DNA of 64,000 bases from Peptococcaceae bacterium (GCA_012517475.1 JAAYUV010000077.1:3800-67799), one strand, 5' to 3'. Shown: positions 3,830-40,342, counted from the first letter of the stretch. Notes: generated by a model not told the origin, from the letters alone. Translations and numbers: made by a program.

Positions 3830-3857
3830 AAACCGCAGAAAGGCGGTTTTATTTTTT
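3830..3857 (+). terminator. rho-independent terminator
   Basis: AAACCGC-agaaag-GCGGTTT hairpin followed by TATTTTTT. Confidence 0.6.
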
Positions 3858-4038: not shown

Positions 4039-5214
4039 ATGAACAAAAGTCAACGTCAAAAACAATTAGTCAAACTCATAGCTACCTCTCCTTGGGTATA
4101 TACCGTTGAAAGACTGGCCGGCAAACTGAACGCAAGTACTCAAAGTATCTATCGGGACCTCAACGAGCTGGAAGCTAACAGTTATCAATTTAAAAAGGAT
4201 GAAGCAGGCCGGATTTATCTTCTGGAAGCCGGTTGGGATACTCTTGGCCTTATAAAAGAATCCACAATCCGACAGGTTGAAATCCTGCGTTTTATTGCCG
4301 CTTCCAAAAACGGATTGCGTATTCGAGACATTGAAAAACACTTTCATTTACATAATGAGAGTAGTGAAAAGACCATTGAACGCGATTTAAAAGAACTTGG
4401 CCAAAAGCATCTCATCACCTGTCAAAATGGGGTTTACACCTTGCTGTCAAACCAGCTTTTACCTCCCGTTCACTTAGACGCGACTGAGAAAAACCTATTA
4501 ATTGAAGCCTTAGCTCTTCAGGGGGAGTTATCCCCCCGTAAGGACGAAGCAAAATCTATTTTAGCCAAATTGCAGGTTTCTTTAGAAACACCATCAACTC
4601 AAAACGAAACTGTTATTTTGCATGGCAGAAGACCTGTAGATAATTTGCGACGGAATAATTATTGTTTGTGCTTGGAGAAATACGCTCAAAGTAGGGAAAA
4701 AATATCGATTCTTTACCGCCGAGGAGTGGAACCGGCCTTGGAAATTTCGGTAAATCCTCTAGGACTTGTTTACTACTGGGCACTCGATAACTGGTATTTG
4801 GTTGCCCAGGATCAAAACTTCCTGCAAATCAAAACTTATTTGTTGGATCGAATTCTATTAATTGAGCCAAAAGGAGTAACCTTCTCCCTGCCGGAGGGAT
4901 TTCACATGAAAAAATGGTTTAAATTCTCTTGGGGAATCTTCCGCACCGGGGAACCGGTAAAAGTAGTAATCCGTTTTTATCCTTATTACTCCACAATCCA
5001 AAGAGTTAAGGAAGAATTAAAAAATCGGGAAACCTGCTTCTTTAGCGAAGAAAATGGTGACTTAATTGTTGAGGATCTGGTCGATGGATTAGATGAGATC
5101 GCCGTATGGCTTAGAGGTTTTGGACCAGGCGCTGAAGTCATTGCGCCTTTAGAACTTAGGGAAAAAGTTCAATTTGAGTTAGAAAAAATGCTTGAGATCT
5201 ATGGAGGACATTAA
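4039..5214 (+). CDS. WYL-domain transcriptional regulator (two N-terminal wHTH, WYL, C-terminal extension)
   Basis: HTH: TVERLAGKLNASTQSIYRDLNELE. WYL core: NPLGLVYYWALDNWYLVAQD. C-terminal WCX-like block: EIAVWLRGFGPGAEVIAPLELRE. AGGTGA SD lies before the ATG at 4039. Confidence 0.8.
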   Translation: MNKSQRQKQLVKLIATSPWVYTVERLAGKLNASTQSIYRDLNELEANSYQFKKDEAGRIYLLEAGWDTLGLIKESTIRQVEILRFIAASKNGLRIRDIEKHFHLHNESSEKTIERDLKELGQKHLITCQNGVYTLLSNQLLPPVHLDATEKNLLIEALALQGELSPRKDEAKSILAKLQVSLETPSTQNETVILHGRRPVDNLRRNNYCLCLEKYAQSREKISILYRRGVEPALEISVNPLGLVYYWALDNWYLVAQDQNFLQIKTYLLDRILLIEPKGVTFSLPEGFHMKKWFKFSWGIFRTGEPVKVVIRFYPYYSTIQRVKEELKNRETCFFSEENGDLIVEDLVDGLDEIAVWLRGFGPGAEVIAPLELREKVQFELEKMLEIYGGH

Positions 5215-5216
5215 GA

Positions 5217-6182
5217 ATGGATTCCTTAGCCAGAATGACACAGATTTTGGCCTTACTTGAAGCAAACCCTCAAGGTATAAGCGGTGAAAAACTTGCCCAG
5301 GCTTGTAATATTTCTTGGGCACAGTTGCAAAAAGATTTAGAAACGATGACGCTGGCTACGGAAAACCCCATACCCCTGTATACCGATACTGATGAATTGA
5401 GTAGTGATAGTGACCCGGAGCTTACTCCCCAGAGTAAATGGTTTTTAGAAACATCTTGCAAGAGAAATTGTCCGGTCTTTTTAACGGTTGGGGAAACACT
5501 ACAAATCTTAGACGGGTTGGATCTAATTCAACATTATCAAAAGAAAACGAATTCTTTAAGGCAAAAAATATCCGCTGGCCTTGATTTGAACCAGCAAGAA
5601 AGTTTTCGATACATCAAAGGAACTATGACCCCGGTTGAACGCATGGATGAGGAAATACTGCGAATTATTAGCCTAGCAATTCGCTGCAGGAAAAAAATAA
5701 GGTTTAATTTCAATTCCCGAGTTACCATTGCTGCACCATTAGGGGTAGTCTATTACTCCCGTTTGCGGCAATGGTATTTTGTTGCCCAAATTGATCAGAT
5801 GATAAAGACCTATAATTTTTCCAAAATTGAAAACATGCTGCAAACAACCGATTCTTTCACCTATCCTGAAAGCTTTTCCCTGCAGGAATGGCTGGCTCCC
5901 CGCTGGGGGATGGAATTTGGAGAGAGCATGCATGTGAAAGTGAGATTTCTGAACCGTTCCCAGACGTTTGCTAAAGTTCGTAAAGATGTCGCACACCGTC
6001 GATGTCATTTGACTGAAGGAGACGGGGGAAAAATATTAATCTTTGAAGACGACGTTATTGGAAAAAACGAATTTATCGCCTGGATTCTCGGTTTTGGTTC
6101 CGCGGCCGAAGTATTGGAACCCGTTAAGCTTCGCCAGGAGATTTTGGCAAGAATAAAGACTGCCTTGGCAAGATATAGTTAA
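5217..6182 (+). CDS. second WYL-domain regulator (PafC-like partner)
   Basis: It starts 2 nt after the previous stop. WYL core: APLGVVYYSRLRQWYFVAQ. C-terminal block: FIAWILGFGSAAEVLEPVKLRQ. Confidence 0.8.
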   Translation: MDSLARMTQILALLEANPQGISGEKLAQACNISWAQLQKDLETMTLATENPIPLYTDTDELSSDSDPELTPQSKWFLETSCKRNCPVFLTVGETLQILDGLDLIQHYQKKTNSLRQKISAGLDLNQQESFRYIKGTMTPVERMDEEILRIISLAIRCRKKIRFNFNSRVTIAAPLGVVYYSRLRQWYFVAQIDQMIKTYNFSKIENMLQTTDSFTYPESFSLQEWLAPRWGMEFGESMHVKVRFLNRSQTFAKVRKDVAHRRCHLTEGDGGKILIFEDDVIGKNEFIAWILGFGSAAEVLEPVKLRQEILARIKTALARYS

Positions 6183-6265
6183 GACTTCTCAACTTTTTGT
6201 CACTCCCTTTTGCTACACTAATTCTGTAAGCGGCGAAAATAGATGGATGAAAAGGAGAAAAGAGT

Positions 6266-8245
6266 ATGGTTATGCAAGCCAGATATCTTACAAAATCCCG
6301 TTTCAAGCAGGCAAGAGAATGTCCGACAAAACTTTATTATACAGGAAAATCTGAATACGCCAATCAGAACATTGAAGATTCCTTTCTCTTAGCCTTAGCT
6401 GACGGTGGATTTCAAGTCGGCGAACTGGCCAAATATTATTTTCCCGGTGGCTATGAGATCAAAACCTTGGATTACGAAGAAGCTTTATCCGCAACAAGTG
6501 AATTATTAAAAAAAGACCATGTTGTGATTTTTGAAGCAGCTATCCGCTGGCAGAACCTGTTTATCCGCGCCGATATTCTGATCAAAAACAAAGATCAGCT
6601 GGAATTGGTGGAAGTTAAAGCAAAATCATTTGCTGAAGCGTGCGAAAATATTTTTTGGACCAAAAAAGGTACACTTTCTTCAGAGTGGCAGTCCTATCTG
6701 GAGGACGTAGCTTTCCAAAAATATGTTCTTAACCAGGCTTATCCGGAATATTCCGTTTCAGCCTATTTGATGATGGCAGATAAAAGCGCTAGATGTCCGA
6801 CAAACGGACTGAACCAGAAATTCAAGCTTACCAAAGACCAAGATGGAAGAAGGAGTGTCATTGTATCTCGGAATTTATCCGCTGAGGATCTTTCACCTTG
6901 GATTCTTGGTAAAGTTAATATTGATAATTGCTGTAGGTTTATTTACACCAGTATTTATGAATTTGACAACAGGCAATTAACTTTCTCTGAACTTGTGAAT
7001 ATTTTTGCTGATTACTATAACCGGGACACAAAAATAATACCTATCCTGTCTCTGAATTGTTCTACTTGTGAATTTCGGGCAACAGAGCCTGAATTGGCGG
7101 CAGGACTAAAGAGCGGCTACCATGAATGTTGGCAGGAAACCTTGGGTTGGACAGACCGGGATTTTGCGGAACCAACAGTCTTTGATATATGGAATTGCCG
7201 GAAAAAACAAACGTTTCTAAGTGAAGGCCGCCTCAAACTGACTGAAATTACAGAGCAAGATATCTCTCCAAGAAGCGATGATAAACCAGGGCTTTCGACC
7301 TCTGAACGCCAGTGGCTGCAGATCAAAAAGACCCAAACTAACGATTTGACTTGTTGGCTTGATCGAGCAAATTTATCCGCCGAAATGCAAAAATGGGTTT
7401 ATCCGTTGCATTTTATTGACTTTGAAACCGCAATGGCCGCTATTCCATTTTATAAAGGCAGACACCCTTATGAAGGGATTGCTTTTCAGTTTTCCCACCA
7501 TGTGGTTTACGCTGATGGCAGGATTGAACACCATGGTCAATATTTAAATACCCAACCAGGGGTCTTTCCAAATTATGATTTTATCAGAACCCTAAAGAAA
7601 GAATTGGAGCTGGATCAAGGAAGTATTTTCCGTTACGCCGCCCATGAAAATACTTATCTAAATCTTATCTACCAGCAGCTAACGGAAGACCCAACTCCAA
7701 TTGTAGATAGGGAAGAACTCTGCGGATTTATCCGCACCGTCACGCAGGCAGTAAAAGGCAATAGCCTACAATGGACCGGTCACCGCAATATGATCGATAT
7801 GTTGGAGCTTGTCAAACGATTCTATTATGATCCGGTCACGAAAGGCTCTAACTCTATTAAACATGTATTACCAGCAATTCTTAATCGCTCAGGTTTCCTT
7901 CAGGAAAAATATTCCCAACCTATCTATGGCGCAGCAGGAGGCATCCCAAGCTTGAACTATCAGAATTGGACCTGGATCGCGTATGAAGACGGCAAGGTTA
8001 TTGACCCCTATAAGCTTTTGCCGGTGATGTTCCAGGATGTGTCCCAAAAGGATTTCACACTTTTAAGCGATAGCGATGAACTAAGAGACGGAGGGGCAGC
8101 CCTGACCGCCTACGCCCGGTTGCAATTCGAAGAAATGTCGGAATACGAGCGTTCAGAAATTGAAAAGGCCCTGCTGAAATATTGTGAACTGGATACCTTG
8201 GCCATGGTCATGATTTATGAAGGGTGGAAGGTTTTAATAGGATAA
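6266..8245 (+). CDS. DUF2779-family protein: Cas4/RecB-like PD-(D/E)xK nuclease fused to a DnaQ-like (FDFE-motif) domain
   Basis: N-terminus: LTKSRFKQARECPTKLYY. Nuclease core: IRADILIK...LELVEVKAKS. Cys cluster: C19, CSTC and HEC. HFIDFETAMAAIPF matches the conserved FDFE motif of DUF2779. Confidence 0.65.
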   Translation: MVMQARYLTKSRFKQARECPTKLYYTGKSEYANQNIEDSFLLALADGGFQVGELAKYYFPGGYEIKTLDYEEALSATSELLKKDHVVIFEAAIRWQNLFIRADILIKNKDQLELVEVKAKSFAEACENIFWTKKGTLSSEWQSYLEDVAFQKYVLNQAYPEYSVSAYLMMADKSARCPTNGLNQKFKLTKDQDGRRSVIVSRNLSAEDLSPWILGKVNIDNCCRFIYTSIYEFDNRQLTFSELVNIFADYYNRDTKIIPILSLNCSTCEFRATEPELAAGLKSGYHECWQETLGWTDRDFAEPTVFDIWNCRKKQTFLSEGRLKLTEITEQDISPRSDDKPGLSTSERQWLQIKKTQTNDLTCWLDRANLSAEMQKWVYPLHFIDFETAMAAIPFYKGRHPYEGIAFQFSHHVVYADGRIEHHGQYLNTQPGVFPNYDFIRTLKKELELDQGSIFRYAAHENTYLNLIYQQLTEDPTPIVDREELCGFIRTVTQAVKGNSLQWTGHRNMIDMLELVKRFYYDPVTKGSNSIKHVLPAILNRSGFLQEKYSQPIYGAAGGIPSLNYQNWTWIAYEDGKVIDPYKLLPVMFQDVSQKDFTLLSDSDELRDGGAALTAYARLQFEEMSEYERSEIEKALLKYCELDTLAMVMIYEGWKVLIG

Positions 8246-8345
8246 TCATAAATGTCTATTTTAATAGATTGAGCCAATTGATAAAGCGTAAATTTACAAT
8301 AAAATTAGTTTAATTACGTTTATTATTATAGGAGAAGGAATAACA

Positions 8346-9656
8346 ATGGAAAATCTGACTAATCTTATTGAACAATTCCAACAAATATATAACAAGGATC
8401 AGTCCCAAAAAGCGCTGGAAGAACACCGTCAATTTCTTAACAAGTTCCCCTTGGAAAAACTAAAAACCATGACCGTAGAGGAATATGCCTTAGGCAAAAG
8501 CAAAACCGGTTCCTTCAGCTGGTGGTTGGAATACACGCTGACTCCCGGCAGCATCAAAGGGGGGAGTGCGGCCAAACATATTATCTACTACAGTAAAAAA
8601 GACGCCGCCTGGAAATATCCCAAAGAGTATAACTCGGTGGAGGATGCCTGGGAAAAACTGCGTTCTGACATTTTGGAATTAATCGCTTCCTATGACCAAC
8701 AACCGTTTAGCGGAATATCACCTAACAGTCTTCTTTACTCGGCCAATATGCTGAAAGGGAAAATCCTCTACCTTTATCATCCGGATAAATTCCTGCCAAT
8801 TTACAATCTGGAACATATCCATAAATTCTTACAAGCCTTGGATGTACCCAAAGAAAAATGGCAGGGCAAAGATAATGTGGAGTGTAACCAAGTATTAAAA
8901 AGCGCAGTTGCTTATATAGAAAGGCTTAAAGAATGGGATCCGGAATTAACTACCCGATTTCTTTATCATACTTTTAAACCGGACTATAAGTATTATAAAA
9001 TTGCTCCAGGCCAGGATGGTGTGTACTGGGAAGAGTGTCAAACCGGTGGCTACATATCCATCGGCTGGAATGAAGTCGGCGACTTGCGTCAATATCCCGA
9101 CTATGATGAGTTTAAAAATGCTTTCCTCCAATATAATTTTCAAAAAACAACAGCGAAAAACACGGAAAAAGCCAATGAATTATGGCTCTTCTATAATTTA
9201 AAACCCGGAGACAAAATCCTGGCGAACAAAGGGTCTTCCCTTATTCTGGGAATCGGTACCGTTTCCGACCAGGGCTATGACTACAGGGATGACTTGAGCA
9301 CGCAGAAACACGTGGTATATGTTACGTGGGAAAAAGTCTTTAATCCTCCTTTGGAAATTCCCAAGCAGGACTATTGGCCCTTCAAAACTATCTTAGAGAT
9401 CAGCGTCAAAGAATACCTGGTTTGGACAGACCCGGTAATGAATAGAACTAGCAAATCCATAATTACGACATATAGCAGTGAGGAAGAACGGTTCTTTTCT
9501 CGCCTAGAAACGGCCTTGGAACACAAGGGCCAGTGTATTCTCTATGGCCCCCCGGGAACCGGCAAAACCTTTTTAGCCCGCAGGTTTGTCCAGTGGAAAA
9601 ACGAGAAAGAAAACATTCTAGGCCAGACAGAAAAAAAGCCCTGCGTTTATGGCTGA
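8346..9656 (+). CDS. mcrB: McrB-family AAA+ GTPase, 5' part (N-terminal DNA-reader domains plus Walker A); the frame ends just after an A7 tract
   Basis: YYKIAPGQDGVYWEECQTGGYISIGWNEVGDL module. P-loop: ILYGPPGTGKTFLARRF. The stop comes 8 codons after the A AAA AAG tract at 9632-9638. Confidence 0.75.
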   Translation: MENLTNLIEQFQQIYNKDQSQKALEEHRQFLNKFPLEKLKTMTVEEYALGKSKTGSFSWWLEYTLTPGSIKGGSAAKHIIYYSKKDAAWKYPKEYNSVEDAWEKLRSDILELIASYDQQPFSGISPNSLLYSANMLKGKILYLYHPDKFLPIYNLEHIHKFLQALDVPKEKWQGKDNVECNQVLKSAVAYIERLKEWDPELTTRFLYHTFKPDYKYYKIAPGQDGVYWEECQTGGYISIGWNEVGDLRQYPDYDEFKNAFLQYNFQKTTAKNTEKANELWLFYNLKPGDKILANKGSSLILGIGTVSDQGYDYRDDLSTQKHVVYVTWEKVFNPPLEIPKQDYWPFKTILEISVKEYLVWTDPVMNRTSKSIITTYSSEEERFFSRLETALEHKGQCILYGPPGTGKTFLARRFVQWKNEKENILGQTEKKPCVYG

Positions 9657-10822
9657 TGGTGGCCTCCGTACAGCAGTTTAAATGGGAAAGCATTTTGAAC
9701 AGAGGCGAATATGTAGACTTCGATCTCAAAAGCCTAAAGCAAAATTTTCTTGCCGCTCAAGCAGGGGACAAGGTCATTTGCTACAAAGGCGGGGACAATG
9801 ACCGTGGAATTGTCGGCATTGCCGAAATCGCCCAGCCATATGACGGAAATCACCTTCGAGTTAAAGGCCTGCGCCAATTCAGCAGCACGATTCCTTTTGA
9901 TCATTTGAAGGAATCGGATGTCTATCAAAACAGCCAAGCCGGTCGCATGAATAACAGGGGAACTATGTTTACGGTGGATTATGAGTTTTCCCAGTGGTTG
10001 AAAGATTATTTGCTGGAAGCCGGTGATCAAGAAGCGGCCGGTTTAATTGATGATGTCACTGCCAGCAATAATTTGGAAATCTGTACTTTCCATCCTTCCT
10101 ATAACTATGAAGATTTCATAGAAGGCTATAAACCGATGCCTGGCCCTAACGGTCAGGTCACCTTTAAGTTGGAATCCGGCTTTTTTGCCAGAATCTGCGC
10201 CAAAGCGCAGGAACAAGAGGACAAAGGGGTTCCTTATTTCGTGATTATCGATGAAATTAACCGTGGCAATGTGCCCAAGATCTTTGGAGAAATTATCACT
10301 CTTCTAGAAAAAGACAAGCGGGGAATGGAAGTAATTTTGCCTCAGAGCAAACAGCCTTTCAGTATACCTCCCAACCTCTATTTAATTGGCACGATGAACA
10401 CGTCCGACCGCAGTATCAAAATGATGGATGCGGCCTTGAAAAGAAGGTTCGTTTTTATCGAATGCATGCCTCAAACGGTGCTGATAGATAAAAATATCGA
10501 CAGGATAGGGCTCAGCCCAGGGGCCATTCTCCGGCAGCTGAATGCCAAGCTTACTACCATGGTAGGCAGGGACAAGCAGATAGGCCATGCTTACTTTATG
10601 CGAAACGGGGCGCAAATTACCACGGCCGACGAGCTTAAAGAAATTTATGAACTGGAAATCATACCGCTCGTGCAGGAATATTGTTTTGACGATTACCAGC
10701 AGTTAGCCGAGATCATTGGACAAAATTTCGTGGATGTACAAAACATGACCATTCAGTGGGAAATTTTTACCGGACCTGAGGACATCTTTATCTCCGAAAT
10801 AACCAAACATTTTAATAGTTAA
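9632..10822 (+). CDS. mcrB: McrB-family AAA+ GTPase, 3' part in the -1 frame (EVE/PUA-like insert plus the rest of the AAA+ core)
   Basis: RLWLMVAS...AQAGDKVICYKGG..GIVGIAEIA (EVE-like), then CTFHPSYNYEDFIEGY, Walker B YFVIIDEINRGN, LIGTMNTSDRS and ALKRRF. There is no Walker A of its own. An ATG at 9656 overlaps the upstream TGA. Confidence 0.75.
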   Translation, partial: KKALRLWLMVASVQQFKWESILNRGEYVDFDLKSLKQNFLAAQAGDKVICYKGGDNDRGIVGIAEIAQPYDGNHLRVKGLRQFSSTIPFDHLKESDVYQNSQAGRMNNRGTMFTVDYEFSQWLKDYLLEAGDQEAAGLIDDVTASNNLEICTFHPSYNYEDFIEGYKPMPGPNGQVTFKLESGFFARICAKAQEQEDKGVPYFVIIDEINRGNVPKIFGEIITLLEKDKRGMEVILPQSKQPFSIPPNLYLIGTMNTSDRSIKMMDAALKRRFVFIECMPQTVLIDKNIDRIGLSPGAILRQLNAKLTTMVGRDKQIGHAYFMRNGAQITTADELKEIYELEIIPLVQEYCFDDYQQLAEIIGQNFVDVQNMTIQWEIFTGPEDIFISEITKHFNS

Positions 10823-10826
10823 CTTC

Positions 10827-12104
10827 ATGAAAAAAACCATTATCTTAAGCGAATATAATACGGAACTTATTGAAGGATACTGCTTAAAAAGCGAAGAAGA
10901 AAAAGATTATTTAAGCCGTATGGCTTATGAACAGACAAACAACAGGCGCGAGCAGCGTTTCTACTTCGATGAATTAACCACTGGCTTACGGATTCAGACC
11001 TTAAGCTGGGTAGGGGTTATTGAACTGAAAGAGATCCGGATTATTATCCAGCCCAAATTCAACAACGGCTTTCAGGACCTCATCGATGTTATTTGTTTTA
11101 TCAATGAAGTTCCTTTTTGCCGCTGGCATGATAGCCTGACGGAGCTGGCCAAATCGGATTTCATGGAATTATTCTGCCGACTTTTCCTGCAGGAACTGGA
11201 GAAACTCTGGCAGAAAGGCCTTTACAAAGAGTATATCAGCGAAGAAGATAACCTCAGGCAGTTGCGGGGCAGGCCGGACCTGGTCCATAACCTGCAGTAT
11301 AACCATACCAAGCCCACCCGGATCTATTGCCGCTATGATGAACTGGTGACGGATATTGTCGATAACCAAATTATTCGCTTGGCCCTGGAAATTGTCGCTC
11401 GTTTCCGACTCAGCCCCGAGACCGAAAGAAAACTAAGCCGCTATCGTACGGAATTTGCATTGGTATGCGATAGCTACCTGGGAGAGGATTGGCCTCAGTT
11501 TTTCTATCACCGTCTTAACGCCCATTATGAACTGGCTCATAAACTCAGCTATTACCTGGTCAAGCAAAGATCCCACAAGAATATTTACTGTTTCCAGGAC
11601 CAGGCGTTCGCTTCCTTCTTATTCGATATGAATGATATCTTTGAAAGCTTTGTGGCCACCTTGCTGAAACGGTATCTGCCGTCATGGTACCGGGTTGAAA
11701 GCCAGAAACGTGTCACCACGGCAATTTGCCAAGATGGAGCCAGTTACCGGCATATCATTCCCGACTTGATCGTTACTGATAAAAAGAGTGGCCATCAGCT
11801 TGTGCTGGATACCAAATACAAAAACTATAACCGCAAACCCGTAGCGACCGAGGATATTTTTCAGCTTGCTTTCTACGCCCAATGCTTTTCCCAGCCGGAG
11901 GAAGGTTATCATCAATCTGTTCTGCTTTATCCACGTTATTGGGGCGAAGTACCCGGAAATGCAAGGATAGATTTATTGCCGGGAAATCTTCATGGCGGAT
12001 ATCTTCGCTTGCGGGATATATCGGTTGAAGAGACGCTGGATTTGATAAGAGGTGGTAATAAAGATAGGCTAAAAGAGACAGCCTTTCATTTGGTTTGTAC
12101 ATAA
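10827..12104 (+). CDS. mcrC: McrC nuclease subunit of McrBC
   Basis: 425 aa, 4 nt after mcrB. C-terminal PD-(D/E)xK: IIPDLIV...QLVLDTKYKNY. Confidence 0.8.
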   Translation: MKKTIILSEYNTELIEGYCLKSEEEKDYLSRMAYEQTNNRREQRFYFDELTTGLRIQTLSWVGVIELKEIRIIIQPKFNNGFQDLIDVICFINEVPFCRWHDSLTELAKSDFMELFCRLFLQELEKLWQKGLYKEYISEEDNLRQLRGRPDLVHNLQYNHTKPTRIYCRYDELVTDIVDNQIIRLALEIVARFRLSPETERKLSRYRTEFALVCDSYLGEDWPQFFYHRLNAHYELAHKLSYYLVKQRSHKNIYCFQDQAFASFLFDMNDIFESFVATLLKRYLPSWYRVESQKRVTTAICQDGASYRHIIPDLIVTDKKSGHQLVLDTKYKNYNRKPVATEDIFQLAFYAQCFSQPEEGYHQSVLLYPRYWGEVPGNARIDLLPGNLHGGYLRLRDISVEETLDLIRGGNKDRLKETAFHLVCT

Positions 12105-12146: not shown

Positions 12147-13670
12147 TATAGAAGTATTTATGGAGGTAATTCCCAGAAACTATGTACGTTTCGAAAGGGG
12201 GGACCAAAAATATTTAGCGAAGCCAGAGAAGCCTCAAACCCAGAAAGACTGGTAACCGCAGCAGAAATAAGCAAAAAATTTAAAGCCAATATTCGGGCAA
12301 AAGAAAAAATATTTATATGCCCCGACTGTTGTGAATATGTCAGTTTTGTCTACAGTACAGCTATAAGTTCTCACTTTCGGCACGAAAATTCAGATGGGTC
12401 AAGAATTTGCGAGATCTATCAGCGTAAAACAACCGGCAATCAGCCTTATTCTCCTTATGAAAGGGCAGGCTTACCTCTTTATTTATTAAGAAGGGGAGAT
12501 TGCTTTAGTCTGAATATTGGCTTTTTTCCCATAGAACAGCAGGCTTTGACGGATGCCGCCGTTGTCGGATTAAGGTTTTCCTTATTTACACAAGACAATA
12601 TTAAACTGACGACAAAGTATATTAACGCAGAATCATTTTCCAGCCAGACAACGGTTCTTTTACAATTGACTAATATAAGTAAGGAATACCGCCTGCAATT
12701 TAGCCACCAGGCAATTCCAAGGGAAATAGATGAAAAATGGAACAATCCCATAGAGGGTTTTGACGAGGCAGGGGCTTTTTTTCAATTTCATGAGCAGGGC
12801 GGAGTTAAAATAAAAAATGGCGGATCAATTGAGGTGAATAATGATTATTATTTGCTTTCACAAGATGATCCCCGGCAGTCTTTGGATGACAGTCTGGTAG
12901 AAAAAGTTGGAGAAATTATTTTTACTACGGATTATTGGACTAAGTTTGTTTTCAATGTTTACCGGATAAAGATTAACAGTATCACTAAACTCAACCAAAA
13001 ATTTTGTTTGGAACGGAGAGTATTGCTGGTCTCAGGCTCTTCCAAAATCAATCCTCTGTGGCCGCCTTGCAATAAACAAGAGCAATTCTATATTTATGAT
13101 CAAAAGAGAGAGCATAAGCAAACCGTCTTTTTCCTTTTAAAAGCACCTGTAACAACTGGGTCAGAACATCACGTTCTTACTTATCCTAACCGAAATATCA
13201 GAATAATGTATGAAAAACGCCGCAAATCTTTAGGCAATAAACGAAATGACATTCCTGTCCAATATATTGCGGAAATCACCAAAATCTATGGCGATTTTAC
13301 GGAAAATGAAATCAGTAAGATCTTCCGCAATGAGGAGTTCGGCTACGCCAAAATCGTTGTAGAGCGACCAATGGTCGATGAGAATGGTCAGCCTGTTCTG
13401 AAGAAAGGTCAGGTCCAGCCGGACAGCAACCTGAGGGATACCGAGAATGTGCCACTGACAGAAGATATCGACAGTTACTTTGCCCGCGAAGTATTGCCTT
13501 TTGCTCCGGATGCCTGGATTGATAAGAGTAAGACGAAGATCGGCTATGAAATTCCGCTTACCCGCTATTTTTACAAATATATACCTCCGCAACCTGCCAG
13601 AGATATTATGGCGGAGATTCTGGAAATTGAGAAGGAGCTTGATGGGGCTTTAAAGGCGGTGTTTGAGTGA
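12147..13670 (+). pseudogene. chimeric ORF: foreign Zn-finger (CoiA-like CPxC...HFRH) N-terminal fragment fused to the last ~150 codons of hsdM
   Basis: The open frame starts at 12147 with no in-frame ATG/GTG/TTG before 12546. N-part: FICPDCCEYVSFVYSTAISSHFRHENSDGSRICE. From ~13220, KSLGNKRNDI..ITKIYGDF..FGYAKIVVERP..KIGYEIPLTRYFYKYIPP is the HsdM C-terminus. No SAM-binding or NPPF motif is present. Confidence 0.6.
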
Positions 13671-14815
13671 TGGCCAGAAAAATGAAGAACAGCGGGATTG
13701 AGTGGATAAAACAAGTTCCAATAGAATGGAAAACCTTAAGAGGCAAAAATATATTAAATTTAATGAATAGACCTTTTTCTGCTGGAGACGGTGTTATTAC
13801 ATGTTTTCGGGATGGAGAGGTTACCTTGCGAAGCAACCGAAGAGAAGATGGTTATACCTTTTCCGATAAAGAAATTGGTTATCAGGGTATAAAATATGGT
13901 GATTTGGTCATTCATGGTATGGATGGTTTTGCAGGTGCTATCGGTATTTCCGACTCTGATGGGAAAGGTTCTCCGGTCTTAATTGTTTGTACACCAAAAG
14001 GAAATATATACTTGAAATACATAATGTATTATCTAAGAATGTTATCTTCTCAAAATGTTTTTACTGCATTGGCAACAGGAATTAGGGAACGTTCTTGTGA
14101 TCTGAGATGGAATAAAATTGCAAACTTGCTTTTCCCTGTTCCTTCAACACAAGAACAACTAGCTATAGTTGATTACCTCGACCGAAAATGCAGCCAAATT
14201 GATGACAACATAGAAAAACAAAAAACAGTTATTGAAAAACTACTACTCTATAAACAATCCGTAATCACTGAAACTGTAACAATGGGAATTGATAAAAAAA
14301 TTGATAATAATTGGCGGGAAGAGAAATTAGGGAAGATAGCGTTATATAAAAAAGGTCCTTTTGGTAGTGATATAACTATTTCAATGTTTGTTCCAAAATC
14401 GCAAGGATCTATTAAGGTGTACGAGCAAAAAAATGCTATTTACAAAGATGCTACGTTAGGCGAATCTTATATTAACATGGAAACATTTCATAGATTGAAG
14501 TCGTTTGAGGTTTTCCCAGGTGATATAATTGTAAGCTGTGCTGGTACAATTGGAGAATGTTTTATTTTGCCTGACAATATGGAAAAAGGAATAATTAACC
14601 AGGCTTTAATGAAGATTAGCTTAAATACTGATATGAATAAGTCGTTCTTTTTATATTTATTTGATGTAATTTTAAAAGAATTATCTGCAAGGTATAGCAA
14701 TGGGAGTGCTATGAAAAATATTCCTTCTTTCGAAATTCTTAAAAAGCATAAAATACGAGTGCCAAATATTAAGAGACAAGATGAAATAGTGGAATATCTT
14801 AATAATAAAAGATAA
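13667..14815 (+). CDS. hsdS: type I restriction-modification specificity subunit HsdS (3' end frameshifted)
   Basis: Two target-recognition domains flank the central helix LFPVPSTQEQLAIVDYLDRKCSQIDDNIEKQK. The distal conserved helix (KLIEKLEEYK, then VTGKREVM*) lies after the stop in two other frames up to 14913. Confidence 0.75.
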   Translation: MMARKMKNSGIEWIKQVPIEWKTLRGKNILNLMNRPFSAGDGVITCFRDGEVTLRSNRREDGYTFSDKEIGYQGIKYGDLVIHGMDGFAGAIGISDSDGKGSPVLIVCTPKGNIYLKYIMYYLRMLSSQNVFTALATGIRERSCDLRWNKIANLLFPVPSTQEQLAIVDYLDRKCSQIDDNIEKQKTVIEKLLLYKQSVITETVTMGIDKKIDNNWREEKLGKIALYKKGPFGSDITISMFVPKSQGSIKVYEQKNAIYKDATLGESYINMETFHRLKSFEVFPGDIIVSCAGTIGECFILPDNMEKGIINQALMKISLNTDMNKSFFLYLFDVILKELSARYSNGSAMKNIPSFEILKKHKIRVPNIKRQDEIVEYLNNKR

Positions 14816-14913
14816 AAGTTTTAAAATTAATAGTGTTATTAATGGCAAACTAAAACTCATTGAAAAGCTTGAAGAATATAAAATGCGTTACCGGTAAAAG
14901 GGAGGTCATGTAA

Positions 14914-17507
14914 ATGCCTGATTTTGACTACAAAGAAAAAAAGCTGGAAGAAGCGATAGAATATTACCTTACAACCGAAGGTGGCTATGTCAAGGGCAGA
15001 GAGGATTATTACAATAAAGAACTTGCCTTAAGTATTGATAATCTTCTGACCTTCATTAAAAATACCCAGCCCAAGGAATGGGAGCGTTATGAGACCATAT
15101 ATCGGTACAACAGCGGGCAGGCTTTTGTGGAACGCTTTTGCAAAGAGGTACGTCAGGTTGGTATCATTCAAGTCTTACGGAAAGGGATTACGGGAGGACA
15201 ATTATTCCATAGCTTATCTCTGGGAAAATGTCTTACATAAAGATTCCCTGATGGAAATTTTGCAAAAGTTTGTCCATCTGGAGAAGAAAACTACTAAGGA
15301 TATAACGGGCAAGAAAAATGTAAAGAAAAACATCATCTTTCCCCGTTATCACCAGTTGGATGTTGTCCGTGAACTGTTGGCCGACGTCAAAGCTAACGGT
15401 GCGGGCCGTAATTATCTGGTCCAACACAGTGCCGGGAGCAGCAAATCCAACTCCATCGCCTGGCTGGCCCATCGACTTTCCGGTCTTCATAATCACCGGG
15501 ATGAAAAGATCTTCAAATCCGTAATCGTAGTTACCGACCGCAAGGTCCTGGACAACCAGCTGCAAGACACCATTTATCAGTTTGATCATAAGCTCGGCGT
15601 AGTGGAGAAAATCGATAAGGACTCCGCCCAGTTAAAAGACGCCATCAATTCCGGCAAAGCCATTATTATCACCACCTTGCAAAAATTCCCCGTTATTTAT
15701 CAAGAAATTAGCAGCGGGCACAACAATTTTGCCATTATCGTGGACGAGGCCCATTCTTCCCAAACCGGTGAAGCTGCTAAAAAGCTAAAGAAAGCTCTGG
15801 CTGATACCGATTGCATCCTGGAGGAATACGCCCGGATGGAAAACAAGGAAGAGGCGGAAAGAAAAGATGACGAGGATAAACTGCTGAATGAACTGGCCAC
15901 TCAGGGCCAGCATAAAAACCTGTCCTTCTTTGCTTTCACAGCGACCCCTAAGGAAAAAACGCTGCAGATGTTCGGAGAGAAGCAGCCTGACGGCAAATTC
16001 AAGGCTTTTCATATTTACTCCATGCAGCAGGCCATTGAAGAGGGCTTTATTCTTGATGTCCTTAAATACTATACTACCTATAACCACTATTTTGAGATCA
16101 TCAAAAAAGTGGAGGATGACCCAGAACTGGATAGTTCCCGGGGAACCAGCGCCATCCGTAGATTTGAATCTCTTCACCCTCATAATCTTGCCCAGAAAAC
16201 CGTGATCATGGTGGAACATTTCCGTTCCATTACCAAGCACAAAATCGGGGGCAATGCTAAGGCCATGGTAGTTACCGCCTCCCGCTTGCATGCCGTAAGA
16301 TACTTGCAGGAATTCAAACGCTATATCCAGGAGAAAAAATACGATGACCTCGATGTCCTGGTGGCCTTCTCCGGCACAGTTCAGGATGAGGGAATGGAAT
16401 ACACGGAAGAAAAACTGAATAAAAATTCCGAAGGCAAGACCATTAAAGAAAAACAGCTGCCCGAGTATTTCAAATCAGACGAATTCAACATGCTGATCGT
16501 GGCGGAAAAATACCAAACCGGATTTGATGAGCCGCTGCTGCACACCATGTTTGTGGATAAAAAATTATCTGGGGTAAAAGCGGTCCAGACCCTTTCCCGT
16601 TTGAATCGGACGATGCCGGGTAAGGAAAACACCTTTGTCTTAGATTTCGTTAATTCAGCGGACGAGATCAAAGCGGCTTTCGAACCATATTATCAAGCAA
16701 CCATATTATCAAGCAACCATTTTATCAGAAGAAGCCAGTCCCAACATTATTTACGACATTAAAAACACCTTGGACCAGTATCATCTATGGCAGCAATCGG
16801 AGATTGAACTGTTTGCCCAAATTTATTATCAGTCTAAGCAGGATATGCCTGATCTCGGCAGACTGGCCTCCTCCTTGCAGCCGGCGCTGGATCGGTTTGC
16901 TGCGAAAGAACCTAGAGAACAGGATGAAATCAAAACTGGACTGGCTCGGTTTATCCGGCTCTATGCCTTTATTACCCAAGTCTGCAGGATGTTTGATCGG
17001 GACATTCATAAATTCAGCGTGTATGCCAAGCTTCTGCTGAAGCTGATACCCAAGGGTAAATTTGAGAAGATCAATGTTGATAACAAGGTCTTACTTGCTA
17101 AATATAAATTAGAGAAGGACTTCGAAGGAATTATTAGGGTTGCGGAGAGTCCGGAATTAGGTCCGATCAAAGGAACAGTCGGCGGTAAGGAAAAGAAAAA
17201 AGAGCATTTATCTGTAATTATTGACCGGATCAACGAACGCTTCGGGACAAACTTTACGGAAATGGACAAGGTTTTGGCGCAAATTACAGAAGATTTTATG
17301 GCCGACGAACTCATGGTCGATATAGCAAAAAATAATCCGCAGGCTACTTTTGAGAGGATTTTCGAACAGCAGTTCAAAGATTTCGCAGCTATCCGCTATG
17401 AACAAAATGAAGAATTTTTCATCCGTATGTTTAAAGATGAGGAGTTTATGAGCGAGGTTATTAAACTTATGCTGCCCGAGGTCTATCGCAGGCTGCGCAA
17501 AAAGTAG
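14914..17507 (+). pseudogene. hsdR: type I restriction enzyme R subunit HsdR, broken into three ORFs (14914..15240, 15089..16762, 16770..17507)
   Basis: Helicase motifs: QHSAGSSKSNS, IIVDEAHSSQ, FTATP and QTGFDEP. The nuclease-domain region between LRKGI and YSIAYLWENVL is missing (~15190-15200). A 16-bp tandem duplication at 16685-16716 shifts the frame. Confidence 0.85.
16685..16716 (+). repeat. perfect 16-bp tandem duplication (CCATATTATCAAGCAA x2) inside hsdR
   Basis: Read directly. Removing one copy restores FEPYYQATILSEEASPNIIYDIKNTLDQYHLWQQ in one frame. Confidence 0.95.
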
Positions 17508-19072: not shown

Positions 19073-19190
19073 TTCTGAATAATTTATTGAGGAAGTTAAA
19101 ATGTTAGATATCCAAAATGATCCTCAAAAGCCAGAGAATTCTTTGAGAGTATATCTGAAGAAAACAGGAGAAGCTTTTCTACTCTTCTGC

Positions 19191-19239
19191 AAAAAAATCC
19201 GGATGAGCATAATTAACTTGTACTCATCCGGATTTTTTT
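19191..19239. terminator. strong bidirectional rho-independent terminator
   Basis: AAAAAAA-TCCGGATGAG-(15-nt loop)-CTCATCCGGA-TTTTTTT. Confidence 0.75.
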
Positions 19240-19316
19240 ATATAGTGTCATTCTCAATTTTTTGTCCCAGCCATTTGCTACAATAAAATTATAAACAAGG
19301 GTAAGGAGGAATCCTT

Positions 19317-20399
19317 TTGGGAAAAGATAAATTTCTTATAATTGTTCATTTTCTAGCAACCGGAATTGTCCGCTGGCACAAAAATTATATAAACTCTGGT
19401 AAGACTTATCCCTATCCAGATGATGTGCAGTTTGGCTTGGATAAGCTGGCCTGTTATAGCCTAACAAAAAACCTGGAATTTCCCCGGAATATTCCGGAAG
19501 CGGTTCAATGGTTTCACCAGCCTCTTCAAACATGGCCGCAGGTTTTAGAAAATTTACTGCCTTTTGCTACGGAAGAAGCATTAATGATAGATAACATGCC
19601 GACGGATCTCTGTTATGAATTGGCTCTGGAAGGTGATGTTGAGCAGGAACTGATGGAAGGATTATTGGTTCAGGTTTTGAATCTCTGCCAAGAACAAGGA
19701 AAAAATGAAGATTACGTCCGCTTCCGCCGTTTTATTATTGAAAATCCAATTTTGGATCGCGCTAAGCTAATCCGTTGGAGCAACAACCTGCAAAACGGCG
19801 TGGCTGCCCGGCTCCTCCAAGATGCCTATGAAGACCTGCCCGCCGGTGCTCTGGGGCCGGAAGGGAAGTATTATCAGTGCCCTCATTGCGGTTGGATTTT
19901 AGAATGGAAGAACGAAAGTGAAGGCCGGTGTATTCATCAACAATGTACGGAAAAGACCAATAATTTTAAGAAACGGAAAGTCCTTGCGGGAACCGGTCTG
20001 GTACGTTTGAAACGCGGTATTATGCGCTTTATCGCCTGGCCGGGCCGCTGGGAATTAAAACTGGAAAGTGATCTCTTAAAACTGCACCACGGTTTAAAAG
20101 TAGATTTATGGCCCGGTTTTGACAGTTATGACCTGCGGCTTACTTTTCCCACCGGTGAAGTGTGGGGGATTGATGTTAAAGATTGGAGAAATCCCTATCT
20201 ATTGGCGAAAAAAGCAGGTGTCTTCCCGCCGTATCCTGTTTGGGACAAGGCATTCTGGATTATCCCGGATTATCAATGGCGGCGTTACAGCCATTATGGA
20301 CAAGAATTCGGGAGATTCCATAAACTTGGCAGCAATGAATTTATCGAATCCCTTGGCGGCTTCCGCCGGAGGGTTCAACGTTTGCTGGAGGTGGAATAA
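19317..20399 (+). CDS. Zn-ribbon plus PD-(D/E)xK restriction-endonuclease-fold protein (candidate pPIWI-RE-associated REase)
   Basis: AAGGAGG SD 7 nt before the TTG start. Zn ribbon: CPHCGW...CIHQQC. Nuclease-like core: SYDLRLTFPTGEVWGIDVKDW. It ends 2 nt before the next gene. Confidence 0.5.
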   Translation: MGKDKFLIIVHFLATGIVRWHKNYINSGKTYPYPDDVQFGLDKLACYSLTKNLEFPRNIPEAVQWFHQPLQTWPQVLENLLPFATEEALMIDNMPTDLCYELALEGDVEQELMEGLLVQVLNLCQEQGKNEDYVRFRRFIIENPILDRAKLIRWSNNLQNGVAARLLQDAYEDLPAGALGPEGKYYQCPHCGWILEWKNESEGRCIHQQCTEKTNNFKKRKVLAGTGLVRLKRGIMRFIAWPGRWELKLESDLLKLHHGLKVDLWPGFDSYDLRLTFPTGEVWGIDVKDWRNPYLLAKKAGVFPPYPVWDKAFWIIPDYQWRRYSHYGQEFGRFHKLGSNEFIESLGGFRRRVQRLLEVE

Positions 20400-20401
20400 C
20401 G

Positions 20402-23400
20402 ATGCGGGATGTAACTGGTTGGAAAAAAAGCTTTGTAAAAGAAATTAAAAAAGCGCTACCGGAAGATACTGGATTAAAAGCGGGAAATTTCTGCGATATC
20501 GAACTCGGGTTGTTTTTATGGTTTAAAATTGCACCGGATGAAGATTGCCACAATTTTTGGACTCTGCTTGCCGGCTGGCCCTTCGCAAACGTATGGCTGA
20601 CTTTAAGCGCTGAAAATAAACAAGCGATTGCTTTCATCCGCTATTATCTGCGTTTCTATAAATCCAACCGTTTCTGGAAAAAGTGCCTGGAAAATTACCG
20701 AGAGATAGGGGAGACCATAAGGCTATTCAATATTGATGAAAATGGTTTGCTTAAGAAAAGAGAACTCTCGATTTGTCCGGAAAGAGTGGATCTGTATACC
20801 CAGGTTCTGCAAACAATGCCTGAAAGTTCTCCAAGTGAGCTAAAATGGGCTGATGAGGGAATTGTTTACTTCCGGACTCCTGAAGACAGTATTGACTCAG
20901 TTGAAATTCCTCCAGAATGGGAAGCTTCTTCTTCAACAAGCAAGTTGCAGCTTAAAGGGAAATCTCAACGCCAGAATTTAATTGTACCTTGGCTGGAATT
21001 AGAAGAGACTGCTTCCTGGATGGATGAGCAATTAAAGAACTCTTTTTACGGGGAACAAATCCGAAAACTTCGTCTGGAATCGCTCGCCAGGGAATGGAAT
21101 TCGGAGCATGGAATTCCATTAAACGGACTGGCTCATATCGTCGGAATGCCGAGTTCCGGTAAATCAACGCTAATGAAGATCTTAGCAGTTTGGGCTGGGC
21201 AAAAGGGTCTCCACACCACCCTGATCGTCGACAATATCGCTTCCGTCTTGGAGCTCACCGCTTTGCTGGGAAAATTCAACTTAGAGGCGGTTCCTATCTT
21301 AGGTGCCTATAACCGCCAGGCCCACTTGGAAAAGACTCATGCTTTAATTCAAGAAAATGGACTGAATCTCGGAAGCATACCACAGCTAACATGGTTAAGC
21401 ACGGTTTGTCCTTTAAACGGCTTACGGGAAGACACATCGGTTCACCAACCGTTTTTACCGGGAAGAGAGCCCTGTACAGCTTTATATAAAGAACATCCTT
21501 GGCAGGCTAAATCGAAGAAGCCCCAGCGTTATCTCTGTCCACTCTTTGAACGCTGCCCGGTTCAAGAGGCAATGTGCCGTTTACTCAAAGCCAATATTTG
21601 GGTTGCTACTCCGGCCAGTTTGATTCATACCTGGCTTCCTGTCCAGTTAACCGGACAAAAGATGCGTATCTGGGAAGCCGTTTACCGGCATAGTGATCTC
21701 CTAATCATGGATGAGGTAGACCGGATCCAGGTTATTTTTGATCAATTCTTTGCTCCCACCCAGGTGCTTGCCGACCATACAGGAAATTCCTGGCTGAATA
21801 AGCTGGGTGAAAACGTTAGCTCTTCCTATTATGGAGGAGGCCGGAGACAATTAGCGGATGCCAATCTGGTCGATTGGCACCGGGCTTATGATAATGTCCA
21901 ATCGTCCATCAATTTGCTTTACACTACGTTATTAAAAAATATCGAGCTTCGTAAATGGCTGGGGCGCAATTATTTTACCACCTGGGGCCTAATGGACCGT
22001 TTGGTGCATGAATGGGAAGCGACTGGTCTTCCTATTTCCACTGCAGAAATGATGAACAAGATGGAAGCTTATATCAAAAATCCTTTTGGCCAGGATACAG
22101 TTCAGGAACTGGCCCAGGCAGCTACTCTGTTTCTGATTGCCCCTGAATCTGAGCTCGGTCGCTCCTTGATTCGTCCCTGGCTCAAATCGCAGGGCATTAA
22201 TCTTATAGATGAGTTTACCGTGGATAAACTGGCTTTGATCGTTGTGTTGGCCATTCTCGAATATTCGCTCTTCACCATGGTGGAGGAATGGGAAGAAGCA
22301 GCCCGGGAATTTAATCTGGATGACGAGGGCTTGGATTTTTTCCGCCACCGGCTGGGAGATTATCAGCCGGTTTTACCGGAAGCTCCTATGGGTAATTTAC
22401 TGGGTTTTCAGTATGTGCAAAGTGATAATAACCGCAATCCGGGTATTATTCGTGTCTTCCGTTTTATGGGCGTTGGACGCTGGCTGTTGGCCAACTTTCC
22501 CGAATTGCTCGCAGACGGAGAAGGAATTACCGGCCCTCACACCTTGCTGTTATCCGGAACCAGTTGGGCTCCGGGGTCGCCTGCTTACCATCTTGCTGTT
22601 CCACCCGCCGCTATCCTGAAAGCTCCGGAAAGCGAGCTGGCCGGCATTGAGGGGAGTGAGATAGATTTTTCACCTGTTTATGACGAACTTGGCAAACCTC
22701 TACGGGTATCCGGGACCAAAGGCCAAGAACGGTTCACGAATCTTCAGCAACTATTAAAAGGGTTGACCGATCCCGGTCGGCAGGGAATGAGCCGTTTAAA
22801 ACGGGAGCTTACCTTGCTTGAACCGCAAAGGCAACGCCTCCTGCTCTTGGTAGGAAGTTACGAGGAAGCCAGAATAACCAAAAACTTTTTTAAGAACCAC
22901 CGGGATTGGGCAGAAAGTGATGTCTGCTGTTTAATCCGGGATAATGAGGACGAGCAAGATGATACCACCGTTCCTCGAGGAATGGTAGAGCAAGTTGCCA
23001 CCCGACAGGCTAAGATTCTCATCGCACCGATGCTGGCGATTGAGCGAGGCCATAACATCTTGAATGAAGACAATGTCGCTGCTTTTGGAAGTGCTTACTT
23101 TTTGGTACGCCCCATGCCTGTTCCCAATGATATGAACAACTACACCCAATATATTAACTGTTGGGCAATGCGTAAATATCAAGACGGGGAATGGCTGAGC
23201 AAAAAATGTTCGGAAGCAAAGATGGGACAAATCGGAACCCAATTCCGCTCTGACGCAAATACGTGCTGGCAATTCCGGGTAAAAAACGAGCACAAAAACC
23301 GTAGCCTTCATAACTGGCCACTCGAAGAAAAACGCGAATTATTCTGGACTCAGTTGGTGCTTATCTGGCAGATTATCGGAAGACTCATCCGAGGAGGCTG

Positions 23401-23632: not shown

Positions 23633-23634
23633 AG

Positions 23635-34504: not shown

Positions 34505-34553
34505 TTGTAATTTATCCTTTTATGGTATAAAATACCAATAGAACATATGTTCC
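34505..34553 (+). promoter_or_regulatory. sigmaA-type promoter with a perfect Cheo-type LexA (SOS) box
   Basis: TTGTAA (-35) and GGTATAAAAT (-10 region), then AGAACATATGTTCC at 34540-34553 (GAAC-ATAT-GTTC). It shares the block GGTATAAAAT-N4-ATAGAACATATGTT with 17571-17598. Confidence 0.55.
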
Positions 34554-40312: not shown

Positions 40313-40342
40313 TTGATTTTAGAACATATGTTCTTTTATAAT
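40313..40342 (+). promoter_or_regulatory. promoter with a palindromic LexA (SOS) box between -35 and -10
   Basis: TTGATT-TT-AGAACATATGTTCT-TT-TATAAT. The box (40321-40334) is a perfect GAAC-ATAT-GTTC. Confidence 0.55.

Follow-up and report, generated by a model that had tools for sequence, protein, structure and literature searches.

Within a 64,000-nucleotide (nt) stretch of DNA from a Peptococcaceae bacterium (GCA_012517475.1, JAAYUV010000077.1:3800-67799; hereafter the window, with positions counted from its first letter), two adjacent genes for WYL-domain regulators, here called WYL-A and WYL-B, are followed by a gene for a DUF2779 nuclease. We found that the interval in front of the DUF2779 gene carries a promoter box with the letters and spacing of the promoters read by PafBC, the heterodimeric WYL activator of mycobacteria, and that a similar box precedes a pPIWI-RE operon in the same island. 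Taken with the comparative evidence below, this makes it probable that WYL-A and WYL-B form a PafBC-like heterodimeric activator outside Actinobacteria, wired to DUF2779 and pPIWI-RE. The evidence is computational throughout (sequence, profile and structure prediction). It comprises the domains of the two proteins, a pair kept together across genomes, a box of fixed spacing that is unique genome-wide, and the joint occurrence of box and pair.

The interval upstream of DUF2779 contains a PafBC-type promoter box

A conserved box was found in the interval between WYL-B and the yhaM-like gene that follows the pair in relatives. The window has two such boxes, located with a position weight matrix (PWM), in the following setting.

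4039-5214, + strand: WYL-A, 391 amino acids, tandem winged helix-turn-helix (wHTH) domains, then WYL and WCX domains (Pfam, PADLOC, AlphaFold2/Foldseek)
5217-6182, + strand: WYL-B, 321 amino acids, wHTH-WYL-WCX paralogue (Pfam, PADLOC)
6187-6219, + strand: box 1, PafBC-type, TCTCAACTTTTTGTCACTCCCTTTTGCTACACT, with GTC at 6199-6201, -10 element TACACT at 6214-6219 and no -35 element (PWM)
6266-8245, + strand: DUF2779 protein, Cas4-like iron-sulfur (Fe-S) PD-(D/E)xK nuclease plus DEDDy 3'-5' exonuclease (Pfam, alignment, Foldseek)
19190-19240, + strand: terminator-like hairpin immediately upstream of box 2
19252-19284, + strand: box 2, PafBC-type, TCTCAATTTTTTGTCCCAGCCATTTGCTACAAT, with its last position 32 nt from the start codon of the pPIWI-RE restriction endonuclease (REase) gene downstream (PWM)
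19317-26220, + strand: pPIWI-RE three-gene operon (REase, DinG-like helicase, pPIWI-RE; Pfam), the proposed second target

Box 1 ends 46 nt upstream of the DUF2779 start codon. Since it lies directly 5' of this gene, the proposed switch has a concrete cis element. Across 22 aligned boxes, the GTC, one T of the TG and the T-A of the -10 element are invariant, the final T of the -10 is nearly so, and the spacing GTC-N12-TA holds without exception; no -35 element at a spacing of 16-18 nt is present at these boxes. The core of the window box, GTC-N12-TAnnnT, agrees in letters and spacing with the mycobacterial PafBC -26/-10 promoter, which has been described as tGTCgg(N10)tA(N3)T and also as tTGTCRgtg-8nt-TannnT (PMC8635444, PMC5656591). 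At those promoters, PafB reads the GTC at -26 and the complex stands in for -35 recognition (PMC8635444, PMC5656591), the trigger being single-stranded DNA (ssDNA) bound at the WYL domains (PMC11804915).

An extra block, TCTCAA, stands about 12 nt upstream of the GTC in both window boxes (6187-6193 and 19252-19258) and is shared by the closest relatives (L089, L096); the additional winged helix of WYL-A might bind there.

The extended box is confined to two promoters of the genome

To place the window boxes in their genome, we used a PWM built from the relatives only and scanned it over the 3.68-Mb sequence at a threshold of at least 18 bits. The best match genome-wide, at 24.0 bits, is the DUF2779 promoter, and the third-best, at 19.5 bits, lies at window positions 19256-19287, after the terminator hairpin and 29 nt upstream of the REase start codon. 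Seven matches reached the threshold, as compared with none in the reversed-sequence control, and the only ones in promoter position are the DUF2779 and pPIWI-RE sites. These two boxes agree at 25 of 32 positions and have in common the 15-mer TCTCAAnTTTTTGTC, which is absent from the rest of the 3.68 Mb. Unrelated loci totalling 1.35 Mb gave three matches of at least 18 bits, one of them in the same metagenome-assembled genome (MAG) as L096; for scores of 19.5 bits and above, about one false positive is expected per 2.7 Mb.

Specificity resides in the extended box: the bare core TGTC-N12-TAnnnT, when tried as a test, was not enriched in the window (9 occurrences vs 5.9 expected). We also rejected a global DNA-damage regulon in this genome, as relaxed patterns add only sites 5' of a lipoprotein-like and a transporter-like gene or within open reading frames (ORFs). 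The box is absent upstream of the other pPIWI-RE operons in the order, and likewise upstream of DUF2779 outside the lineage.

WYL-A and WYL-B are intact paralogues, and WYL-A has a predicted activator-like fold

The sequence-only reading of this DNA had described two adjacent WYL proteins with helix-turn-helix (HTH) and WCX blocks, and the Pfam and PADLOC profiles confirm them. WYL-A matches HTH_DeoR (7e-8), HTH_11, WYL (1.6e-8) and WCX (1.9e-14) in Pfam. WYL-B matches WCX (1e-12) in Pfam and the WYL models of PADLOC (1e-25), and stays under the Pfam cut-offs for WYL (18.3 bits) and HTH_11 (21.9 bits). The two ORFs, both intact and separated by 2 nt, encode paralogues with 37% identity across WYL-WCX. 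Upstream, a terminator-like hairpin closes the preceding transcription unit, and an AT-rich stretch (32% GC) extends from it to the start of WYL-A; no conserved operator was found 5' of WYL-A in 29 loci, and the only palindromes found were AT-rich and of low complexity.

3830-3849, + strand: terminator-like hairpin

The AlphaFold2 model of WYL-A (predicted local distance difference test score, pLDDT, 81) has two winged helices in tandem (residues 3-63 and 74-135), followed by WYL and WCX. Using this model as the Foldseek query, we obtained matches to DriD (1e-16), PafBC (9fnd, 4e-14) and BrxR/CapW (about 1e-9). By these scores, the modelled fold resembles DriD and PafBC, activators that are triggered by ssDNA, more closely than it does the repressors BrxR and CapW.

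The box co-varies with the pair in Desulfitobacteriaceae

WYL-A has about 45 close homologues; where an organism is named, it is Desulfosporosinus, Acididesulfobacillus or Peptococcaceae (the named ones are all Desulfitobacteriaceae). We collected 32 WYL-A loci, of which 31 have sequence downstream of WYL-A, and in 30 of these 31 WYL-B follows directly. In 21 loci, the gene after the pair encodes a YhaM-like OB+HD exonuclease (1e-40 to 1e-45 against NF010007, which is under the equivalog cut-off), with SRAP coming after it in A. acetoxydans and Peptococcaceae CEB3; the genes flanking the pair in these relatives are ordinary chromosomal genes. We take the ancestral target of the pair to be the YhaM-like exonuclease gene and not DUF2779.

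The box stands directly after WYL-B in essentially all pair loci. It also stays with its gene: yhaM-like orthologues located apart from the pair keep it at the same distance (L179, L198), and in HMP52 and UBA8487 the yhaM-like gene is elsewhere in the genome with the box still attached. In D. meridiei (L092:11156) and D. hippei (L099:12156), which have lost the yhaM-like gene there, the box and the yhaM leader remain after WYL-B. None of 35 distant YhaM-like genes of other Clostridia has the box. A further 19 genomes were screened for the presence of the pair. An intact box was found at 20 of 21 loci in pair-bearing genomes vs 2 of 16 in pair-less ones (Fisher p = 3e-7; p = 5e-5 with a stricter count), although these p-values are optimistic because the species are phylogenetically related. 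In the pair-less genomes, the GTC has often decayed to GAC, GTT or GCC.

The box also precedes other genes in relatives. The order in a Desulfosporosinus MAG (L096) is pair, box, yhaM-like gene, second box (22.5 bits) and DUF2779, so that the box recurs independently in front of DUF2779. An RmuC gene (PF02646, 9e-78) of D. nitroreducens and D. lacus (L153, L160) bears the box, with its start codon 35 nt after it, and is likely an additional regulon member.

Desulfosporosinus sp. BRH_c37 has a full pair and yhaM-like locus (L197) and, elsewhere (L107:10001-13967), a solo second WYL-A without WYL-B, followed 290 nt later by a type I Cas3.

The pair lies in an acquired defence island

Among 29 genomes of the window's GTDB family, WYL-A is present in one and DUF2779 in two. 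Because only 1 of the 29 has the pair, we consider it part of an acquired (horizontally transferred) island here. This island also holds McrBC, a decayed type I restriction-modification system, pPIWI-RE, SbcCD, a UvrD-like nuclease-helicase, HEPN and RhuM. The yhaM-like gene was not found to have moved elsewhere in the window or genome, its sole relative being a 26%-identical YhaM paralogue on another contig. Genomes of the same genus offered no usable synteny for defining the island borders.

The type I restriction-modification genes (12147-17507) are fragments: HsdM is reduced to its C-terminal part, HsdS is present, and HsdR is truncated or split. A perfect Cheo (LexA) box, GAACATATGTTC, occurs twice in identical form, at 34541-34552 and 40322-40333, and a third LexA-type site, GAAC-N4-GTTC, at 17364. 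With LexA boxes inside the island, SOS-type and WYL-type control therefore appear to coexist there.

DUF2779 is a predicted dual nuclease without a fixed partner

The presence of Cas4-like and DnaQ-like modules in the DUF2779 protein, noticed earlier, was confirmed by the family profile, invariant residues and Foldseek. The PF11074 match scores 76.2 bits against a cut-off of 23.3. Across 22 homologues there is no variation at D103, E116, K118, C265, C268, C288, D385, E387 and D643 and almost none at C19, and Y639 of YCELD is conserved. In the structural model (pLDDT 82.6), the N-terminal half matches Cas4 (7mi4, probability 1.0), MGME1 and AddAB, and the C-terminal half gives weak matches to RNase T and the DinG exonuclease. 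Specifically, the Cas4-like module, a predicted nuclease, has the D...E-x-K triad, a fold like that of Cas4/RecB and the four cysteines of the cluster, of which one is N-terminal and three are C-terminal; the DEDD module has the Exo I D-x-E and Exo III Y/H-x3-D motifs, with E461 or D511 as candidates for the Exo II acid.

This dual-nuclease architecture has already been published (PMC3985635, PMC13621843), and what is new here is the PafBC-type box before DUF2779 and pPIWI-RE. A family member in the minimal mycoplasma JCVI-syn3.0, MMSYN1_0389, is quasi-essential, with its function uncharacterised (PMC13621843; PMC3985635). It has the same Cas4-like PD-(D/E)xK plus DEDDy (MrfB-like) architecture as the window protein, but two Fe-S cysteines instead of four; and whereas MMSYN1_0389 is quasi-essential, the window gene is accessory, as its family distribution indicates (2/29), and carries a WYL-type box.

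DUF2779 homologues exceed 6,900 and span many phyla. For their neighbourhoods, we sampled 84 species-level loci, in which 1,232 genes were called. Since the 553 neighbouring proteins spread over 462 clusters, DUF2779 is best described as a standalone gene without a fixed partner. By profile search, 13 of the 84 loci have a WYL-like regulator no more than 10 kb from DUF2779 (single-sequence phmmer gave 4/84); it is adjacent in four and immediately upstream and co-directional in two. The expectation is about one WYL gene among the 1,232, given a baseline of 2-5 WYL proteins per genome (PMC6789036). The immediate neighbours are housekeeping genes plus many defence genes, among them dGTPase, SoFic, PbeA, BrxL, type III restriction-modification, ZorD, AbiEii, DpdE and Drt3a. 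Both WYL regulators and defence genes, whose frequency beside DUF2779 the sequence-only reading had proposed to measure, are enriched around it. A fixed WYL/DUF2779/McrBC operon was rejected, with WYL genes in those 13 loci and McrBC adjacent in 2 of 84, and no LexA box was found 5' of DUF2779 in 80 loci. The recurrent WYL and defence association points to a putative role for DUF2779 in processing DNA ends during damage or invasion.

Some individual loci are worth recording. McrB and McrC lie directly 3' of DUF2779 in a Bdellovibrionaceae MAG (L079:12030-15818), and McrBC lies near it in an Ignavibacteriales MAG (L051:4520-7709). A LlaJI-type system (two Dcm, AAA_5, RE_LlaJI) sits beside P0002, a 69%-identical homologue (L086:9379-14648; L086-L088).

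A proposed ssDNA-triggered switch

From these data we infer that the two proteins act as a heterodimer, by activation and not repression, with ssDNA as the ligand and WYL-A as the DNA reader, and the biological role given above to DUF2779 is inferred as well. In the proposed division of labour, WYL-A would be the PafB-like, DNA-reading subunit and WYL-B the PafC-like subunit. As in PafBC, by analogy with which the mechanism is proposed, the pair would be produced constitutively, and ssDNA arising from DNA damage, phage replication or nuclease action would bind the WYL/WCX domains. The complex would then dock at the -26 GTC, allowing the housekeeping RNA polymerase to use -10 promoters that have no -35 element ('sigma adaptation'). 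The two promoters of this genome with the box would respond, one for DUF2779 and the other, 13 kb downstream, for the pPIWI-RE operon. The module would be native to Desulfitobacteriaceae, where it would drive the YhaM-like 3'-5' exonuclease, and would have arrived here by horizontal transfer without the yhaM-like gene.

A broader version of this proposal is that sigma adaptation by heterodimeric WYL activators extends beyond Actinobacteria. The PafBC analogue of Clostridia, whose heterodimer would have three winged helices and follow the same -26/-10 grammar, would travel on defence islands as an ssDNA-triggered switch that makes pPIWI-RE and DUF2779 inducible effectors of immunity or repair, DUF2779 being a recurrent cross-phylum output of WYL ssDNA sensors. 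We offer this more tentatively, at somewhat below an even chance.

Several observations weigh against a PafBC-like activator acting on these promoters, in addition to the relatedness of the species compared. The sequence profiles of the pair match DriD at 1e-15 and 2e-9 vs PafBC (6sj9) at 5e-5 and 5e-8, and Pfam HTH_PafC scores 17.8 bits where the cut-off is 32. Sequence-level orthology to PafBC is therefore not supported: because the profiles place the pair no closer to PafBC than to DriD, we regard it as PafBC-like in its way of working and not as an orthologue. The earlier label of a PafB/PafC-like pair accordingly survives for the organisation, with adjacent paralogous wHTH-WYL-WCX genes kept together in 30 of 31 loci, but not for the sequence. 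The regulon here comprises two sites, without recA and uvr genes, as against about 150 genes for PafBC. Box and pair also part company in places: Desulfitobacterium CA_182 (L191/L115) has the pair and no box, and a UBA4726 MAG and Desulfosporosinus SRJS8 (L185, a small MAG, and L187) have an intact box and no detectable pair. In a pair-bearing Desulfosporosinus (L005), the DUF2779 box is mutated to GTT, and on contig ERZ22146367_265 DUF2779 lies about 25 kb 3' of the pair without a box. In D. acididurans (L141, L146, L152, L158, L162), four to five identical box-like matches lie 5' of an apparent ribosomal RNA (rRNA) operon leader; they represent either spurious matches of the model or a target that was not anticipated. 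Finally, the DUF2779 box of the window could be an inherited yhaM promoter kept after deletion of the gene.

Alternative explanations

WYL regulators at the 5' edges of defence islands are typically repressors, and the island is rich in defence genes. The pair might then be a BrxR/CapW-type repressor that occupies the promoters at rest and gates the island until a ligand releases it, with the GTC box as its operator, and the fold search does return BrxR and CapW as well, at about 1e-9. We consider this unlikely. Each of BrxR and CapW is a homodimer from a single gene and binds a palindromic operator upstream of that gene, whereas the window has paired genes and a non-palindromic box. In addition, this box takes the place of a missing -35 element at PafBC spacing, the 29 loci show no conserved operator 5' of WYL-A, and the modelled fold is nearer to the activators.

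The possible origin of the DUF2779 box in a yhaM promoter leads to another explanation, in which the adjacency is incidental. The pair would serve the yhaM-like gene in the donors only, the DUF2779 box would be a deletion relic, the pPIWI-RE site would be a chance match or an extended -10, and the pair would perhaps be functionless here. The window intergenic region indeed resembles the yhaM promoter of L096, and D. meridiei and D. hippei show that the box can outlast the loss of the gene; moreover, DUF2779 has no conserved neighbours and is located elsewhere or absent in most pair-bearing genomes. However, chance accounts poorly for two sites that agree at 25 of 32 positions, share a 15-mer found nowhere else in the 3.68 Mb and each stand at the start of an operon of the same island, when false-positive matches of at least 19.5 bits arise about once per 2.7 Mb. 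L096 has a separate box of its own before DUF2779, and both ORFs of the pair are intact in the window. On balance, we hold incidental adjacency to be improbable.

Least probable, and in our view very doubtful, is that some other factor (an alternative sigma or another regulator) reads the box while the pair responds to another ligand and has other targets: the two genomes with a box and no detectable pair and the PWM-like matches before rRNA leader-like sequences in D. acididurans would fit this, but the box follows WYL-B directly in essentially all loci, co-varies with the pair and has a spacing that is a nucleotide-exact match to the motif of the only characterised heterodimeric WYL activator. 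To our knowledge, the box also resembles none of the consensus sequences of Firmicute alternative sigma factors.

McrBC is a separate neighbour

Downstream of DUF2779, the McrBC genes, which with WYL-A, WYL-B and DUF2779 make up five co-directional genes, are arranged as follows.

8278-8305, + strand: sigma-70-like promoter TTGATA-16-TAAAAT, 5' of McrB
8346-9656, + strand: 5' part of McrB, with the N-terminal domains and Walker A, ending six codons past an A7 run
9638-10822, + strand: 3' part of McrB in the -1 frame, with the EVE insert and the rest of the AAA+ domain
10827-12104, + strand: McrC (PF10117, 3e-58), intact

The sequence-only reading gave gaps of 84 nt before DUF2779 and 100 nt before McrB, which are correct, and treated McrB as one ORF, which it is not: McrC is whole, but McrB is split between two frames by a 1-nt frameshift at the A7 run (9631-9637), where an in-phase heptamer A_AAA_AAG spans 9632-9638. 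Homologues of 815-830 amino acids with 50-58% identity, among them read-through proteins of Paenibacillus, Caldalkalibacillus, Natranaerobius and Bacillus testis, bridge the junction as single ORFs. Because they do, we take the window McrB to be frameshifted and the EVE insert to be a feature of the family. A conserved programmed -1 frameshift is unlikely, given that the homologues are single ORFs; by this comparison, a mutation, a phase-variable slip or an assembly error at the A7 run is more likely than conserved recoding. The EVE domain (9638-10080), common to many full-length homologues, follows the Walker A helix and precedes the next strand of the AAA+ domain. At the same site, the McrB of the Bdellovibrionaceae MAG (L079) has another insert, about 150 amino acids long.

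It had been suggested that the pair controls one or both nuclease systems. For DUF2779 this is supported by the PafBC-type box; for McrBC it is not, as the PWM scan found no such box 5' of McrBC, where McrB has a sigma-70-like promoter of its own. On this sequence evidence, McrBC appears to be a separate neighbour, not visibly controlled by the pair.

Comparison with known WYL regulators

PafBC of Mycobacterium and other Actinobacteria is likewise encoded by two adjacent paralogous wHTH-WYL-WCX genes. Its promoters likewise have a non-palindromic GTC-N12-TAnnnT, identically spaced, where a -35 element would be, and its targets are nucleic-acid-processing genes; its structures give fold matches of about 1e-13 to 1e-14. 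The window pair differs in being hosted by Clostridia, with no Pup-proteasome locus among its neighbours, and in the extra second winged helix of WYL-A. Its regulon is local, with one or two promoters per genome, whereas that of PafBC includes recA among its roughly 150 genes. The window targets include a defence operon, and the window sub-clade has the further TCTCAA block 5' of the GTC.

DriD of Caulobacter crescentus is the best match overall (hidden Markov model, 1e-15; Foldseek, 1e-16). This WYL-WCX activator, itself activated by ssDNA, turns on a response independent of SOS and, unlike the window pair, is a single-gene homodimer. DdaA of Moraxellaceae is a WYL activator that couples DNA-damage sensing to repair and anti-phage defence (restriction-modification, CRISPR) (PMC12392091). 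It is a single protein and a global regulator that replaced SOS, whereas the window pair is an island-borne accessory regulator of local reach, in an island that, unlike the DdaA setting, still has LexA-type boxes. BrxR and CapW likewise are wHTH-WYL-WCX proteins heading defence islands, but they are homodimeric repressors that act on palindromic operators of their own operon, and their fold match is weaker (about 1e-9).

Sigma adaptation of the PafBC type is so far known only from Actinobacteria, and the same grammar in Clostridia would mean that the mechanism is older or more transferable than has been assumed. With one or two promoters, the pair is a small, clean test system. It would also provide a regulatory handle on the pPIWI-RE Argonaute-like operons and on the DUF2779 nuclease, which is widespread, with thousands of homologues, and quasi-essential in a minimal mycoplasma. 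Such a switch would fit reports, such as that on DdaA, that ssDNA-sensing WYL activators tie DNA-damage signals to anti-phage immunity.

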